From: Octopus vulgaris | Taxonomy: Eukaryota | Direction of reading: 5' to 3' | Assembly (NCBI GenBank): GCA_951406725.2 | Contig: OX597822.1 | Location: forward strand, 5,084,001 to 5,148,000 | DNA length: 64,000 bases | Shown here: positions 1-42,335 of the stretch, one piece after another | Layout of the letters: every line of letters begins with the position of its first letter | Numbering within the stretch: the stretch's first letter is position 1 | Translations under genes and position numbers: made by a program | The notes under the pieces: model-generated | Seen by the model: the letters and a program-made list of their open reading frames with translations, nothing else | The model's database searches: none | What the model was told of the DNA's origin: nothing

Positions 1-189
1 CCTACCCATGGCCAGACGTGTTTTCATGGAGGGTTGCAAACACATGACATGCTTGTGGCACCCATTTTCAGGTATCACATGACGTTGAGTCAAGGAGACA
101 CAAATACATATGCATTCATATACTTCCACTGTGTGTGTGTGTGTGTATATATATGTATGTGTGTGTGTGCATGCATTTGTGTATCTGGA

Positions 190-800
190 CTCCCACCTTT
201 GTCATGAACAGGAATTAATCTTCTCTCTTTCACTCCTTTGCACCACATGGGTTCAACTCCCCTCCCCTCTTCATCTGACTCTCCTCCTCTTCTCTCTTCA
301 TCTAACACCTAACTCTTCGCTTCACTCCTACCCACCTTCTCTCTTCATTGATACCCCCTCCATCCACCTCATCCCCACACAGCTCACTCCAACATACCCC
401 ACCCCATCTTCACATCCCCACACCCACTGTCATCTACACACACACACATACCATCATCAACACACTCACACATTACAGACGCACACATTCACACATCAAA
501 GTCACTAGCCTCTATCCAAACACACGTACTCTCACATACACACATGCATGCGCACCTTTTTGGGATCACCAGTACTTTATTATCTCCTCTTCTTCCTAGT
601 TCTTCTGTCAAACTATTTTTCCCAACCAATCACCATGACTTATCACTAAATCCACAAGGTTTTTTATTCTCTCTCTGTTTATTTCCTCTTATTCCTTTCT
701 GCTGAAGAGCGTAGGCTTGAAACGTAAATATCAAACTAATTCAACAGCTTGTTGCTCATACACCTGTCTTCATCTTTTCTTTTTCTGTAAATTTCAACTA
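190..800 (+). mobile_element. 5'-truncated 3' end of a Penelope-like (Neptune-type) retroelement, same family as 36700-37905
   Basis: Colinear with ~37150-37905 (catgaacaggaattaat...caactcccctcccctcttcatctgactctcct, pyrimidine/(CA)n 3' region, then hammerhead motif). Encodes the last GIY-YIG residues HEQELIF. The 3' end abuts (TA)n. Confidence 0.85.
694..729 (+). ncRNA. Degenerate minimal hammerhead ribozyme motif in PLE 3' end
   Basis: cttt-CTGCTGA-A-GAGC gtag GCTT-GAAA-CG-TA. The 3' strand of helix I is damaged by a deletion relative to the other copies. Confidence 0.45.
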
Positions 801-1032
801 TATATATACGTGTGTGAGTGTGTGTGTATGTATATGAGTGTGTATACATATGTGTGTGTCTGTGTATATATATATGTATATATTGTATATGTGTGTGTGT
901 GTATATGAGGGGTTCACTGGTGATCTAAATGAATAGGTATGCTGAGTAAATGCTACAATTGGTCATCCGTTAGGTTCCAAGTTCACAGCTGAAGCTGGAG
1001 CTAAGGATCTGTATTAGGCTTCTGATTATCAG

Positions 1033-14471: not shown

Positions 14472-15715
14472 TAGGTAGTTTTGAAAATAATGGCTGCTCT
14501 AAATGTTGTGTTTTGAAACACAATTTTATCATAGTATTTTAATTATATTTTAGGTGAATTTCAACATACTTCATAACTGTTGTATGCTCTTTAATAATTT
14601 TCTACTTATTTCAGACAGAAAACATTCTTGAAGCATAGGCGCCCTTAATTGCTTACTTTTCTTGCATGAGTTCAAGCTTGGGCACAATGCCTCCCAAACC
14701 ACTGCCAACATCAACAGAGCATGAGGAGAGGGATCCACAAGTGATCGCACAGTACAAAGGTGGTTTCAGAAATTCTGTTGTGGTGATGAGAGCCTTGAAG
14801 ATGAAGAAGGCAAAGGATGGTCATGTAGTCTTGACAATGAACAATTGAAAGTAATTGTTGAACAAAATTCACATCAAAGTATCAGAGAAATGTCTCAGGC
14901 ACTTGGTGTTGGTATTGCAATGTTCTCACACAATCTGCAGAAGATTGGTAAGGCGAAAAAGCTCGATAAATGGGTACCGCATGAACTCAATGAAAATCAT
15001 AATGTTCAGCATTTTGAAGTTTGCTCAATGCTCTTTCTGCAAAACACCAATGATCCTTTTCTTGACAGAATAGTCACTTGTGACAAAAAGTGGATCCTTT
15101 ATGATAACCATAAATGATCGGGTAATGGCTTGATTGTGATGGGTCCCCCAAACATTTCCCAAAGCCAAAGTTGCATCAGCAAAAGATTATGGTGACTGTC
15201 TAGTTGTCTGCAATTGGTGTTGTTTATTACAGCTTTCTAGAAGCCAATCAGAGCATTACAGCAGAGGTTTACTGCAAGCAACTTGCTGAAATGCATACTC
15301 ACTTGCAAAAATGAGACCTGCATTGGTGAATCAGCATGACCCAATTCAGCTCCACAATAATGCAAAGCTACATGCTGCAAGAATGACACTGCAAAAACTC
15401 ACAAACTTGGGATATGCGACTTTACCACATCTTCCATATTCTCCTGATCTTTCACCCACTGACTACCATTTTTTAAAGTGTTTAAACACATTTTTAAGTG
15501 ATAAAACTTTCAGGTCCAAACCAGGGGTGGAATCAGCTTTCAAACATTTCTTAGTATCAAAGCCAATACCTTTTTATCAACGAGGCATAAATAAACTCGT
15601 TGATTGATGGCAGAGATGCATAGATGTTCTTAACTCATCAAAACATTTCTGGTGTTGATTTTTCCAGAATAAAATTATATTTCTGAAATCAGCCATTATT
15701 TTCGGAACAACCTAA
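14471..15715 (+). mobile_element. Full-length inactive mariner transposon (Hsmar1/cecropia-like), ~1.25 kb
   Basis: Left TIR ttaggtagttttgaaaataatggctg after TA at 14469-70. Right TIR cagccattattttcggaacaacctaa ends at 15715. Transposase remnant lies inside. Confidence 0.93.
14630..15630 (+). pseudogene. Mariner D,D34D transposase pseudogene with stops and frameshifts
   Basis: HEFKLGHNA...RWFQKF..GDESLEDE, KWVPHEL, IVTCDKKWILYDN, LHNNAKLH (second D lost), PHLPYSPDLSPTDYH. Confidence 0.93.
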
Positions 15716-16427: not shown

Positions 16428-16640
16428 AACGGGAAGCTTTATGAAAATAAACAAAAGATGAAGGCAGGTGGAAAACAAACGAACAATTGTATTAGTATGG
16501 TGCTCAGGAATATAAATAAAACAAGTCTTTTACGTTTCGAGCCTACACTCTTCAACAGAAAGATACACAGAAAAGAAACACGGAGAGAAACAAGGAGAGA
16601 AAAAAAATGCGTGCAGAAGCTAGCTATTCAACAGAGCGAT
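16428..16640 (-). mobile_element. Solo PLE-type 3' end/pLTR fragment (same family as 18826-18977)
   Basis: Reverse complement matches 18826-18977. Carries a hammerhead motif, and the 3' end abuts (TA)n. Confidence 0.85.
16526..16563 (-). ncRNA. Minimal hammerhead ribozyme motif (CUGUUGA variant)
   Basis: Minus strand TCTTT-CTGTTGA-A-GAGT gtag GCTC-GAAA-CG-TA-AAAGA. Confidence 0.6.
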
Positions 16641-17069
16641 TCTATGCACATACACACACACACACACAAATATATCAAATGAGAGAGAGATTGTATCATC
16701 AGACAGTATATGTATTAACTAGGTACAGAAAAGAACAACCCTTTATTATTTATATATAAATTATATTATCAAACAGTGTATGTACTAACTAATAACAGAC
16801 AGAACCAGCCTTCAATGGAACTCGTATCTATCATCTCTCAGATGTCTGTGTTATCAACTTCTCTCTGTAAAATTAGGTATAGGTGTTTTACTTATGATAT
16901 ATATTAATACTTCAATACTTTTGTTGTTTAATTTTACAGAGAGAAACAGAATAGTTGCTATATGATCTAATTATTAATACAACGGCCTAGAACGTTACAA
17001 GGTCTGAGTTCTGCTGGATTGTGAGTTCTCTTTTCTGACCCAAATTGGTTCTTATAATGTCTTTATCGT

Positions 17070-17330
17070 CATCATCATCATCATCATCATTTTAACATAC
17101 ACTTTTCCATGCTTGCATGGGTAGGAGGGAGTTTACTGAGATGAATTTTCTACAGCTGAATGCCTTTCCTATCACCAACCCTTACCTGTTTCCAAGCAAG
17201 TTTGTATCTCCCCATGACCAAACATGTTTTCAAAGAATACTTGAAATGAATGACACTTGTTTACAACTATCATATCATGACAAGACAAAGAGATGCTCAC
17301 ATATACAAACTTACACATTACATACACACA
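17070..17330 (-). mobile_element. SINE/LINE-tail repeat ending in (GAT)n (related pieces at 1-100, ~53865-54130, ~62650-62830)
   Basis: (cat)n then cttttccatgcttgcatgggt...tgcctttcctatcaccaacc, the reverse complement of the (GAT)n-tailed family, plus a shared cccatgRccaRa motif. Confidence 0.6.
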
Positions 17331-17397
17331 CAAACACATGCCAGTGTATCATATATCGCAAAAGAAGCACAATCTAAAGCATAGAGCAGTAATACAT

Positions 17398-17610
17398 TTA
17401 TATGCAGTTAAGTATATGTCCCATGGACGACTTGTCAGACTTTGAAGCCGAAAACATATAAGGGACTGTAACTCCCAGCTAGAGTTGAAGGACCGTAACA
17501 GATTCCTACCCACCAGATTTGAAGAATTATATGCCTTCGGCTGACGAGCCATCCATGGGACTAAACCCTTTATGGATCTGAAACCAGGATATATACTTAA
17601 CTGCATGTAA
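17398..17610. mobile_element. Small nested fold-back element with hammerhead-like core
   Basis: Outer IR ttatatgcagttaagtatatgtcc / ggatatatacttaactgcatgtaa. Inner IR gtcccatggacgacttgtcag / ctgacgagccatccatgggac. CTGACGA...GAAAC at 17541-17584. Confidence 0.65.
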
Positions 17611-17618
17611 TGGAGATA

Positions 17619-17827
17619 AGGCAGCAAGATGGAAGAATCGCTAGAACACTGGACAAAATGCTTAGCAGCATTCTGTCCATCTTTACATCCGCAGGTCAAA
17701 TTCAGCTGAGGTCAGCTTTGCTCTTCATCCTTGGGTGGGTGGATAAAATGAGTAGTGGAGCAGTGGGGTCGAAGTAATTGCCTTACCCCAACCCTGGAAT
17801 TGCAGGCCTTGTGCCAAAATTTGAAAC
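17619..17827 (+). mobile_element. MetaSINE-like SINE copy
   Basis: aggcagcaagatggaagaatcg...gaggtcagctttgctcttcatcctt...ggccttgtgccaaaatttgaaac matches 7011-7421 and 59246-59460. Confidence 0.75.
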
Positions 17828-17893
17828 ATCTATCTATATATATATATATATATATATCTATATATGCCAGTGGCATATATATATATATATATA

Positions 17894-18173
17894 TGCCAGT
17901 GGCATGTAAAAAGCACCATCCGAATGTGGCCGATGCCAGCGCCGCCTTGACTGGCGTCCATACTGGTGGCATATAAAGAGCACCAACTGATCGTGGCCGT
18001 TGCCAGCCTCCTCTGGCACTGGTGCTGGTGGCACGTAAAAAGCACCCACTACACTCACGGAGTGGTTGGCGTTAGGAAGGGCATCCACCAGTAGAAACAC
18101 TGCCAGATCAAACCCCAGTTGAACCATCCAACCCATGCTAGCATGGAAAACAGATGTTAAACAATGATGATGA
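17894..18173 (+). mobile_element. (GAT)n-tailed SINE 3' portion
   Basis: aaagcacccactacactcacggagtggttggcgttaggaagggcatcca...acccatgctagcatggaaa...(gat)n is near-identical to 29575-29750. Confidence 0.8.
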
Positions 18174-18186
18174 TATGTATATATAT

Positions 18187-18810
18187 AAATAGTGCAATAC
18201 AAGAATATTGTTTTCCAGTAAAATAAAGCACCATATGGTTAAAGTATAAACATAAATATAGAATGGTGGTACAAGAATGTACCAATATCTACTGGAAATA
18301 AAAGTTGATAATATACGACGCTATAAAAAAGCTTCACTGTATATACTGGCAAAGACGTATGCAGGTGGCAAACATAAGAAATTTCATTTTACCTGTATGA
18401 AGAACATTAGATAAATGTCCAACTCTTGCATTGCACTATTTAAAATTTTTCTTTGAACTTTTTTCCCTGTTCTTGCTTCTGTTAGCAGCTAGGTGTTCAA
18501 GCGAGTATACTGGCATTGATGTGGCAACAATTGAAATTTTGTTCTGGTAAATCTAGCTGAAGGGAACTAATCAAGTTTATGCTAGCAAACATATCTTGAA
18601 GAGTTTGAAACCTAGGTCCTAGATTATCCACATCTGGGTTGGACATTTATCTGATGTTTTTCATACAGGTAAGACGAAATTTCTTATGTATGCCGTCTGC
18701 ATATGTCTTTCCCAGTATATACAGTGAAGCTTTATTATAGTATCATATATTATTAACTGCTATTTCCAATAAATATTGGTGCATTGTTATACCACCATTC
18801 TAAATTTCCA
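18187..18810. mobile_element. Nested fold-back element with 165-bp inverted arms enclosing a hammerhead ribozyme
   Basis: 18259-18423 is the reverse complement of 18638-18802. A second IR pairs 18187-18204 with 18424-18441 (17/18). TA repeats flank both sides. Confidence 0.88.
18550..18625 (+). ncRNA. Type I hammerhead ribozyme with extended helix II and palindromic helix III
   Basis: AATCTAG-CTGAAGG-GAACT aa TCAAG...CTTGA ag AGTTT-GAAA-CCTAGG-TC-CTAGATT. Helix I is 7 bp, helix III is the palindrome ACCTAGGT, the triplet is GUC. Deviations are A9>G and C11.1>U. Confidence 0.75.
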
Positions 18811-18825
18811 TATATATATATATAT

Positions 18826-18973
18826 GTTTCTTTTCTGTGTATCTTTCTGTTGAAGAGCGTAGGCTCGAAACGTAAAAGACTTGTTTTATTTATATTCCTG
18901 AGCAGCATACTAATACAATTGTTTGTTTGTACTCCACCTGCCTTCGTCTTTTGTTTATTTTCATAAAGCTTCC

Positions 18974-18977
<4 letters not shown>
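18826..18977 (+). mobile_element. Solo PLE-type 3' end/pLTR fragment inserted in (TA)n
   Basis: Matches 16428-16580 (reverse complement) and is related to 37760-37905. (TA)n lies on both sides. Confidence 0.85.
18842..18879 (+). ncRNA. Minimal hammerhead ribozyme motif (CUGUUGA variant), best-preserved copy
   Basis: TCTTT-CTGTTGA-A-GAGC gtag GCTC-GAAA-CG-TA-AAAGA. Perfect 5-bp helix I, 4-bp helix II, ACGU palindromic helix III, GUA triplet. Confidence 0.65.
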
Positions 18978-36769: not shown

Positions 36770-37239
36770 AACCTATGTGGCCTCTTGGTCCACAGTTTCT
36801 TCCCTAACCCCTCCTTCCAACCTGGATTATTCACCTGCTCCCACCCGTGCAGCCTACTTGCCCCTACCTCTCCAACACCACCATCCTCACAGGCACCCAT
36901 CATTGTCCCTATCATATCACTGACTCCTTTACCTGCATTTCTAGCAACATTATTTACTGCATCACCTGTTCTTTCTGTCCTTCTCTGTACATTGGTCAAA
37001 TGGGACACCACTTGACTGACCAGTTCACGGAGTACCTCCAAGACATTAGACTCAGCAATGACACCCCGATCTCACACCATTTCTGCTCTACCAGTCATTC
37101 ATTACAACACCTGTCTGTATTTGGATTATCTTTGCATAGGAGCCATCCGGACACTCGTCTTCACCATGAACAGGAATTAATTTTCTTTCTTCACTCCTTT
37201 GCACTACATGGGCTCAACTCCCCTCCCCTCTTCATCTGA
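36770..37239 (+). pseudogene. PLE linker zinc-finger plus GIY-YIG endonuclease remnant
   Basis: NLCGLLVHS...PGLFTC, frameshift, then TCPYL...FTCISSNIIYCITCSFCPSLYIGQMGHHLTDQFTEY...PISHHF...EQELIF...HGLN. The catalytic Arg region is mutated. Confidence 0.9.
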
Positions 37240-37772
37240 CTCTCCTACTCGCTTCTCTTCATCTGACACCTACTTCCTCTCTTCAGTCCTACCCACCTCT
37301 CTTCTCCTCTCTTGCCCTGACACCTACTTTCTCTCTTCACTCCTACCCAACCCCCTTCATCGATACCCCTCCATCCACACAAATCCTACTCCCACATACC
37401 TCACCTCTACCCCCACATACCTCACCTCTACCCCCACATCCTCACCCCACCCCTACCCCACCCTCACACCCCCACACTTAACACCGCCACACCATCTTGC
37501 ACACACTAGCACTAACCATTTTCCAGCACCCACACCATCATCCACACACACACACACACACACATTACAGACACACACATCATCGTTACCAGCTGCTTTC
37601 CACATGTGCACACACACACTCACATACACACACACCTTTTGGTATCACCTATACTTTATTATCTCCCCTTCTTCCTAGCTCTCCTGTCTAACTACCTTTG
37701 TCCAGCCAGTCGCCATGATTGACCACTAACTCCAAAATTTTTTTTCATTCTCTCTGTTTATTTCCTCATGCT

Positions 37773-37810
37773 CCTTTCTGTTGAAGAGCGAAGGCTCGAA
37801 ATGTAAAAGA
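37773..37810 (+). ncRNA. Minimal hammerhead motif (CUGUUGA variant) in PLE 3' end
   Basis: cCTTT-CTGTTGA-A-GAGC gaag GCTC-GAAA-TG-TA-AAAGa. Confidence 0.6.
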
Positions 37811-37943
37811 CTTTCTTACCTTCCCAAGCATCAAACTAATACACCTTCTTGTTGCTTATACACATGTCTTTGCCTTTTGTTTTTCTGTAAAGTTCAACCA
37901 TATATATATTGTTTGATTTGCGAAATAGTGGTTTTGTCTCGAA

Positions 37944-41249: not shown

Positions 41250-42335
41250 TACTAGAGGTTGCCATGGAAATCAGGATGAGCTCCAGCTATGTTGACTTGT
41301 GAGTCGGTAATGCTGAGATCCATATCTTTTCTCAGTTCACTGAATTTGGTCCAAATTTATATGGCCATTATATTGGCACCATCAAACTCACTCTTGTTTC
41401 ATTTTCCTCATCACCTTTGTCAACTTTTTCTTACCCCACCTAATAACTCACTTACACCATCTCCCCAACTTCGGTCACCTTCCTAAACATTTCCATTCAC
41501 CACCCAATTTTACTGTTGCCTTTTCAGTTTTCCTCGAAATCACCAACTCCTCCGGCTACCTTGATTTTACATCATCCAATCCTGTTCCACTTTTAACAAA
41601 CTTGCTAGACCTAATCCCAATGTCTTCGCCTCTGCAGCCATGACCCTAACTTTAAAATTCACTCTCAATATATGGTGCATCACTTTGTCCAATATGCTGA
41701 ACTGTAGTCAACACTGCCCACATCAGCTCCCTCACACTGACCACATCTTGTCCAGTGTCTCATCCACCATCAACTGCTTACTTTCCCTTCACTTACAGTC
41801 ATCACATCACCTTTCCAGTGAACAATATATGTCAGTGCTGGATCTTCCAATTCTCACCTCCTCACTCACTCCCCTCCTGTAGATGTACTAGCAATCTGCA
41901 TCACTTACTGGTTCTCAACTCCCCCCAGCCTCCCACACACCAAATGCAGATCCATCTTTTGCTTGTCCTCCATTAACGGTGTATATTCCTCCGGCACCTA
42001 CCATCCTCACAGCACCTAGCAACTCCTCCTTCCATGCCATGGACCAATTTATGTGTACTGCCAGGAATCTCATTTATTGCACCAAATGCTGACCATGTGA
42101 TCAGCTGTAAGTAGATATCTAGTCAACAGGTTTCATGAATACCTTCAGGATGTCCAACATTACAATGCTGGGTCACTAGCAACCTGCCACATTCATTCAC
42201 TTTACCTATTTCTTTGCACCTCTCCATCTTCAATATTATCCCTCATCACAGTTCCGGGTTACAATGTAAACAACTTATTCTCCACCTCAGAACAACACAA
42301 CCACATTTGGATTAAGCAATGAACTTGCTTTCCTC
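41250..42335 (+). pseudogene. Old Penelope-like (Neptune) RT plus GIY-YIG remnant
   Basis: EVAMEIRMSSSYVDL (GVAMG.RM.PSYA), PNLYGHYIG (LY.RYIDD), LRLCSHDPNFKIHSQYMVHHF, TILTAPSNSSFHAMDQFMCTARNLIYCTKC*PC. Confidence 0.78.

Follow-up and report, generated by a model that had tools for sequence, protein, structure and literature searches.

Hammerhead motifs are near-universal in the pLTRs of Penelope-like elements (PLEs), yet they are poor cutters and dispensable for insertion in vitro. This raises the question of what purpose they serve. The window, a 64,000-nucleotide stretch of Octopus vulgaris DNA, offers a natural experiment: a multi-species family has lost a near-invariant base of the hammerhead core, A6, and kept the rest. 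If the U6 form cuts with protein, the core tolerates more than the mutagenesis of free RNA implies. If it does not cut, the element uses its hammerhead for something other than catalysis. The initial annotation had framed this as a tolerated core variant against a recognition signal, which is the right pair of readings.

Four minimal type I hammerhead motifs are present in the window, each where the initial annotation had placed it (Table 1). As it had claimed, position 6 is U in three of the four, drawn from two subfamilies, and C in the remaining one; the A6 of the CUGANGA core is absent. The register can be followed in the 18842 copy. The 5′ strand of helix I (18842-46) leads into C3 (18847), U4, G5, U6 (18850), U7, G8, A9 (18853) and an extra A (18854). 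Helix II pairs 18855-58 with 18863-66 around the loop GUAG. G12 (18867), A13, A14, A15.1 (18870), C, G, U16.1 (18873) and A17 (18874) follow, and the 3′ strand of helix I occupies 18875-79.

C3, U4, G5, G8, A9, G12, A13, A14, A15.1, U16.1 and H17 are kept in all four copies, which includes the previously noted GAAA (G12 A13 A14 A15.1), and one extra base follows A9. Helix II is indeed intact throughout, by way of wobbles in 16526 (terminal U-G) and 694 (G10.1-U11.1); its closing pair is G10.1-C11.1 in 3/4 copies and G-U in 1/4. Helix I had been assigned to three copies. These have 5 bp (both subfamily-1 motifs) and 4 bp (37773), but 694 has not lost the helix altogether and retains 3 bp before its deletion. 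The 15.1-16.1 palindrome is ACGU in the expected three copies and AUGU in 37773, where it self-pairs via wobbles. The 694..729 motif is probably a decayed copy, C6 staying below 1% in the family.

Table 1 Hammerhead motifs and associated element remnants in the window.
Feature	Position	Strand	Details
Subfamily-1 motif	18842..18879	+	U6=18850; predicted cleavage after A17 (18874); model R1 34.8 bits
Subfamily-1 motif, second copy	16526..16563	-	U6; terminal helix II pair U-G; model R1 30.9 bits
Subfamily-2 motif	37773..37810	+	U6; loop GAAG; palindrome AUGU; helix I 4 bp; model R1 24.9 bits
Subfamily-2 motif	694..729	+	C6; G10.1-U11.1 wobble; deletion trims helix I to 3 bp; model R1 25.4 bits
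Decayed C-terminal GIY-YIG endonuclease, probable Neptune-type PLE	36808..37239	+	Cys-rich linker remnant upstream; 2248 matches at E<=0.001
Second subfamily-2 3′ fragment	183..808	+	End of endonuclease region and pLTR; 66% alike to 37145-37916
3′ tail of 18842 copy	18880..18976	+	Copy end 102 bases past predicted cut site, in (TA)n
3′ tail of 16526 copy	16429..16525	-	Ends in (TA)n

A descriptor with positions 6 and 7 free found three window sites when helix I was required and four when it was not, against 0.01 and 0.03 sites per shuffle in 100 dinucleotide shuffles of the window. An alternative register, which takes the second CUG/UUG as the core and would make 694 read CUGAAGA, leaves neither helix II nor helix I; it is also contradicted by model R1 (below), which aligns 4/4 copies in the first register. 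No hammerhead family appears among the best 150 of 334 matches to Rfam covariance models. Judged from its letters, the motif resembles the PLE minimal hammerhead in all but A6, and its cleavage is a prediction.

The minimal hammerheads (min-HHRs) of metazoan PLEs have the consensus CUGANGAH and cleave weakly, only as dimers (Cervera and de la Pena 2014, PMC4209133). According to the available text of that study, they share with the octopus motifs the type I fold in the pLTR, a U-rich 5′ flank, a short helix I, an extra base between 9 and 10.1, G10.1-C11.1, a palindromic 15.1-16.1, the lack of loop III and the NUH triplet. The extra A before helix II, which the initial annotation had pointed out correctly, thus belongs to the published consensus and is not unusual. 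The ACGU palindrome has been published too, as has the weak helix I; U6 alone departs. The consensus and the supplementary alignment rows examined have A6, whereas the octopus family has U6, together with A17. In its available parts, PMC4209133 describes U3-A8 as the sole family-level core variant and contains no Octopus entry. A natural U6 (A6U) hammerhead family was not found in the literature searched, a scope that leaves Lunse 2017 and supplementary file 1 of PMC4209133 outside. The string CUGUUGA in PMC2704196 was discarded as a hammerhead core, being a dengue target arm instead.

The coding remnant upstream supports placing the motifs, as a putative minimal hammerhead, at the 3′ end (pLTR) of a PLE that is probably of Neptune type, in line with the earlier placement at a PLE 3′ end. 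The stop codon of the GIY-YIG remnant lies 539 bp upstream of C3 in the 37773 motif, and tblastn of the relative P0121 matches the remnant at E 1e-20. Its long relatives are proteins with both an RT and, at the C terminus, a GIY-YIG domain; P0109 and P0121 carry RVT_1, a CxxxRCxTC linker and the C-terminal GIY-YIG, of which the window itself has the decayed linker and endonuclease only. The Cys-rich linker is common to Neptune and Nematis (PMC8557442). The single named protein match is from Octopus bimaculoides (69% identity over 64% of the query), in keeping with an octopus host. The decayed endonuclease gives no direct match in Pfam, and a near-length protein search found no match. Elsewhere in the window, the heavily decayed stretch 41258-41698 weakly matches the RT region of P0121 (tblastn E 2.4e-4).

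All four copies terminate in a TA run, and the three without the deletion end about 90-100 bases past the predicted cut site. The interval 16428-18977 consists of two short 5′-truncated ends (~170 and ~150 bp, 92% alike) that point outward, with other repeats between. The 16526 and 18842 copies lie on opposite strands, and a dimer of the two within one transcript is impossible.

We tabulated position 6 across the family from sequencing-run contigs aligned to 18826-18976 at 80% likeness, counting differences of at least 1% of depth. The three runs come from three studies with organism labels A, B and C, and contributed 12,269 (X1, possibly from the same source as the window), 20,499 (X3) and 8,655 (X4) aligned contigs. 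In none of them does a letter besides U reach 1% of depth at 18850, a figure that weighs contigs by depth rather than counting copies and leaves uncounted those less than 80% alike or clipped near the motif; one long contig piece is clipped just before 18852. The variant table for 18826-18976 has 25 rows, none at 18850 and none with A6. Depth in the bin containing position 6 is 77-87% of peak, so U6 would be in the majority even were all the missing depth A6. U6 is the family norm, not decay. The tabulation suggested by the initial annotation thus gives no A6 consensus, and its inference that the variant spread while the family was mobile agrees with a U6 that makes up more than 99% of depth in three runs and is common to the subfamilies.

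Relatives elsewhere nearly all have A6. Leaving positions 6 and 7 open, we scanned metagenome contigs for this shape and obtained at least 119 loci, several of which, among those listed, adjoin PLE coding remnants. Among the matches listed, A6 is found in 118/120 matches and in 75/77 distinct motifs, and position 7 shows all four letters. This bears out the near-invariance of A6 asserted earlier, though not as an absolute, given a natural A6C ribozyme (PMC3088659 and PMC7151607, in their available parts). H17 is A in 7/120 of the matches listed, as in the octopus family. Helix I, left free in the pattern, covaries in 47 of the 75 A6 motifs among the matches listed (0.312 vs 0.124 shuffled, 0/500). 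Model R1, built from the listed metagenome relatives, picks out the four window copies and no others, at 24.9-34.8 bits with the next best at 12.4; the match is partly circular, the search pattern having used the helix II of the window.

Two metagenome loci, L022 (C6) and L106 (U6), were rejected as non-A6 lineages. They are singletons whose nearest relatives among the loci listed have A6, and are read as decay. No locus matching the octopus family flank is present among those listed. Prokaryote genomes gave seven matches to the shape, none with the helices of the family, and no exact motif. Viral contigs gave two matches to the shape. There, both helices occur in 0/120 listed matches to the U6 pattern and in 1/120 listed matches to a pattern excluding U6, a C6 sequence likely due to chance.

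Between subfamilies, the motif is identical at 35/38 positions and the 3′ flank at 60/90 (p=0.0016), so conservation exceeds overall copy identity, the point on which the initial annotation had made its reading depend. The excess is seen in all four between-subfamily pairs (p 0.002-0.023) and not in the two within-subfamily pairs (p about 0.36). At flank divergence, the chance of 14 core letters staying identical is ~0.003, and that of the free positions staying identical between the two subfamilies is 0.13. Across the three runs, variants of at least 1% affect 3/38 motif positions vs 17/54 in the adjoining flank, the latter after removal of two changes private to the 18842 copy (p=0.006). Set against the whole 97-base 3′ flank, the contrast is not significant (3/38 vs 17/97, p=0.12), because the last 43 tail bases are invariant too. 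In this tail (18934-18976) no position varies at the 1% level in any of the three runs, and depth peaks a second time; it is a candidate reverse-transcription start region, or an alignment edge effect. The best-supported loose ends in all three runs, at 18843-44 and 18882, coincide with the motif edges, where the subfamilies part, and the motif is covered 4-7 times as deeply as 18902.

Within the motif, C3, G8, G12, U16.1 and the non-G at 17 are needed for hammerhead chemistry and unpaired in the predicted rod (below). At the 1% level they do not vary in any of the three runs, and neither do U4, G5, A9, A13, A14 and A15.1. The changes 18858 C>T (5.9/3.3/1.3% in the three runs) and 18871 C>T (6.4/7.7/3.8%) keep their pairs as wobbles; pairing is lost with 18878 G>T (3-6%) and with 18871 C>A (up to 1.4%). 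At the partner positions, G>A would disrupt helix II or the palindrome; these changes stay below 1%, as does C11.1>U. G16.2>A, which would give a better rod and a broken palindrome, is not seen at 1% in three runs. The excess of wobble-compatible C>T may arise simply from C>T being commoner than G>A; in the flank, 5/8 C vs 2/7 G are changed. No compensatory change or covariation was found within the octopus family. N7, loop II and the identity of helix pairs, all free in a ribozyme, are as invariant as the catalytic positions, a pattern that sequence-specific binding or module exchange would explain just as well.

An 8-base palindrome (18915-18922) lies ~35 bases 3′ of the motif in subfamily 1, and loose-end consensuses differ in its middle letters. 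At the corresponding position (about 740-754), copy 694 carries a hairpin or near-palindrome. The subfamily-1 palindrome could serve as a protein site or assist the formation of dimers.

In the isolated 18842 motif, U4-G5-U6-U7 are predicted to pair with A14-A15.1-C-G (probability 0.98), giving a closed rod of -10.2 vs -7.8 kcal/mol for the open junction, a gap of 2.4. In flanking context, the predicted probability of helix I is 0.52 with U6 and 0.03 with A6. With longer flanks the predicted fold is lost in 3/4 copies, and helix II, predicted with a probability near 1 in the three isolated U6 motifs, weakens or disappears once flanks are included. Among predicted dimers, the hammerhead form does not have the lowest energy (-14.7 vs -26.8 kcal/mol, tertiary contacts being ignored). 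Pairing of G5 with C15.2 is predicted in 0/81 A6 relatives from the metagenome matches listed. A unique closing of the core by U6 is ruled out, as 62/81 of these relatives are predicted to close in another register via G5-H17 (median gap 3.4 kcal/mol). Closed monomers are thus common. In the octopus family, where A17 precludes the usual register, U6 is predicted to restore one, which is no evidence of function. The G5-H17 rods are strongest with C7 and C17 (median gap 6 kcal/mol, L010-L128 among the matches listed). Self-closed monomers may be a general feature of minimal hammerheads.

Two published systems are close to the octopus case. The phage Bcep176 has a natural A6C hammerhead that is slow in Mg2+, at <0.1/min (Perreault 2011, PMC3088659). 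It cleaves well in Mn2+, and A6C shifts the preference to Mn2+ in two hammerheads; cellular Mg2+ is far above Mn2+ (Naghdi 2020, PMC7151607). As far as the available parts of these papers show, it shares with the octopus family the natural loss of A6 with the other core letters intact. It has C rather than U, is one phage sequence with a full helix III, and was assayed as active, whereas the octopus family is a high-copy animal retroelement, minimal and putatively dimer-dependent. The PAc (Poseidon) hammerhead of the anole cuts only in the presence of the added protein of the element, and insertion in vitro persists in its catalytic mutants; the region bound by the protein was mapped to the ORF's first 172 nt rather than specifically to the core (Frangieh 2024, PMC11167929, available text). 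Both elements have a hammerhead upstream of the ends of genomic copies, and inserted copies derived from uncut RNA. In the anole, which represents another PLE clade, cleavage is demonstrated and protein-dependent, whereas the octopus hammerhead is predicted; the anole ORF starts in stem II, and no start codon is evident in the octopus motif. Further background is given in PMC6765202 and bioRxiv 2026.07.22.740005, each available in part.

Our best explanation, to which we give an even chance, is that the family-wide U6 minimal hammerhead of the pLTR is an attenuated ribozyme, cutting rarely, as a dimer and with the element's own protein. For PLEs generally, inserted copies have uncut templates. 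All copies in the window extend across the predicted cut site and continue for ~100 bases, so the templates of these copies were uncut at the 3′ motif. U6 would lower the chemical rate. The monomer, according to the predicted fold, would be a closed rod hiding the palindrome, and the RT-endonuclease protein would open the rod and join the two pLTR copies of a tandem transcript. By analogy with the anole, an efficient cut at the 3′ motif would part the element from its reverse-transcription start. Weak cutting might be tolerated, perhaps favoured, because reverse transcription would have to start downstream of an uncut 3′ motif; with a slow, conditional ribozyme being cheap or useful, a lineage could fix A6U. 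That C3, G8, G12, U16.1, H17 and the palindrome have been retained suggests a continuing role for some cutting. Several results argue against an attenuated ribozyme. In the available text of a mutational scan, every single change in the CUGA turn gives low activity without rescue (PMC9901934), and A6 in 118/120 of the relatives listed indicates that it is normally selected. Compensatory changes are lacking, free positions and the last 43 tail bases are as invariant as catalytic ones (whole-flank p=0.12), and 18878 G>T and 18871 C>A break pairs. The rod is also not special in energy, the median gap of the listed A6 relatives being 3.4 vs 2.4 kcal/mol.

Almost as good a fit is a dead motif that is read by a protein, since the free positions are equally invariant. 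U6 would have ended catalysis in the common ancestor, and the 38 bases would be kept as a sequence or fold read by the RT-endonuclease of the element, or by splicing or promoter machinery in the pLTR; we regard this as possible but somewhat unlikely. It would account for the invariance of the whole module, loop II and N7 included, without covariation, and for a U6 predicted to fold the junction into a closed rod with helix I retained; a G5-C15.2 pair is predicted in none of the listed A6 relatives. Cleavage is dispensable for insertion in vitro (PMC11167929, available text), and Naiad PLEs thrive without canonical hammerheads (PMC8557442). A pyrimidine tract lies 5′ of the motif, and a D. virilis intron ends at helix I (PMC4209133, available text). 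However, C3, U16.1, A17 and G16.2 are kept though the rod needs none of them, the anole protein binds elsewhere than specifically at the core, and identity of the free positions between two subfamilies is not unlikely (0.13). It is improbable that U6 is a neutral relic, fixed by one successful master copy, with recent expansion or module exchange feigning conservation. PLE expansions are reported in octopus (PMC13282606, in whose available text the word ribozyme is absent), and the lack of covariation and the invariant tail would suit such a history. But in three runs the conserved island goes no further than the edges of helix I, the identity of 14 core letters has a chance of ~0.003, and the variants of at least 1% are mostly wobble-compatible. 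Full activity of an adaptive U6, in a special condition (Mn2+, low temperature) or via a compensating contact unseen in 2D folding, is very improbable. The Mn2+ preference of A6C and a position 6 that varies by <1% would agree with it; the great excess of cellular Mg2+ (PMC7151607, available text) and the lack of any compensating double mutant for the CUGA turn (PMC9901934, likewise) speak against it, and with 35/38 positions equally invariant, the invariance of U6 is not specific evidence.

More speculatively, a cephalopod PLE lineage could have exchanged the CUGA turn for CUGU and stayed mobile, with the U6 helix locking the monomer and protein or Mn2+ unlocking it. We consider this rather doubtful. 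If true, U6 hammerheads would here have their first natural family, one that acts as a protein-gated ribozyme switch. Descriptors that fix A6, as in cuganga-based searches, are blind to U6, and PLEs scored as lacking a hammerhead may in that case hold such variants.

The sequence 18826-18863 has a pyrimidine tract followed by AG dinucleotides, the last of them in the invariant loop II (UAG then G). This is a possible splice acceptor overlapping the motif, comparable to the D. virilis intron.

Other remnants are found around the motifs. A Tc1/mariner transposase remnant with a weak Pfam HTH_48 match lies at 14725-15607. A second inverted repeat (18245-18423/18638-18816, with 179-bp arms that are 85% alike and lie ~215 bp apart) adjoins TA runs and is MITE-like or the end of another inverted element; it holds a CUGAU...GAAA look-alike with an incomplete core. 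On the minus strand, 1413-1442 contains a CUGAUGA...GAAA look-alike with A6 and a 4-bp stem (model R1 8.8 bits, E 2), which is either a decayed hammerhead of another family or a product of chance.
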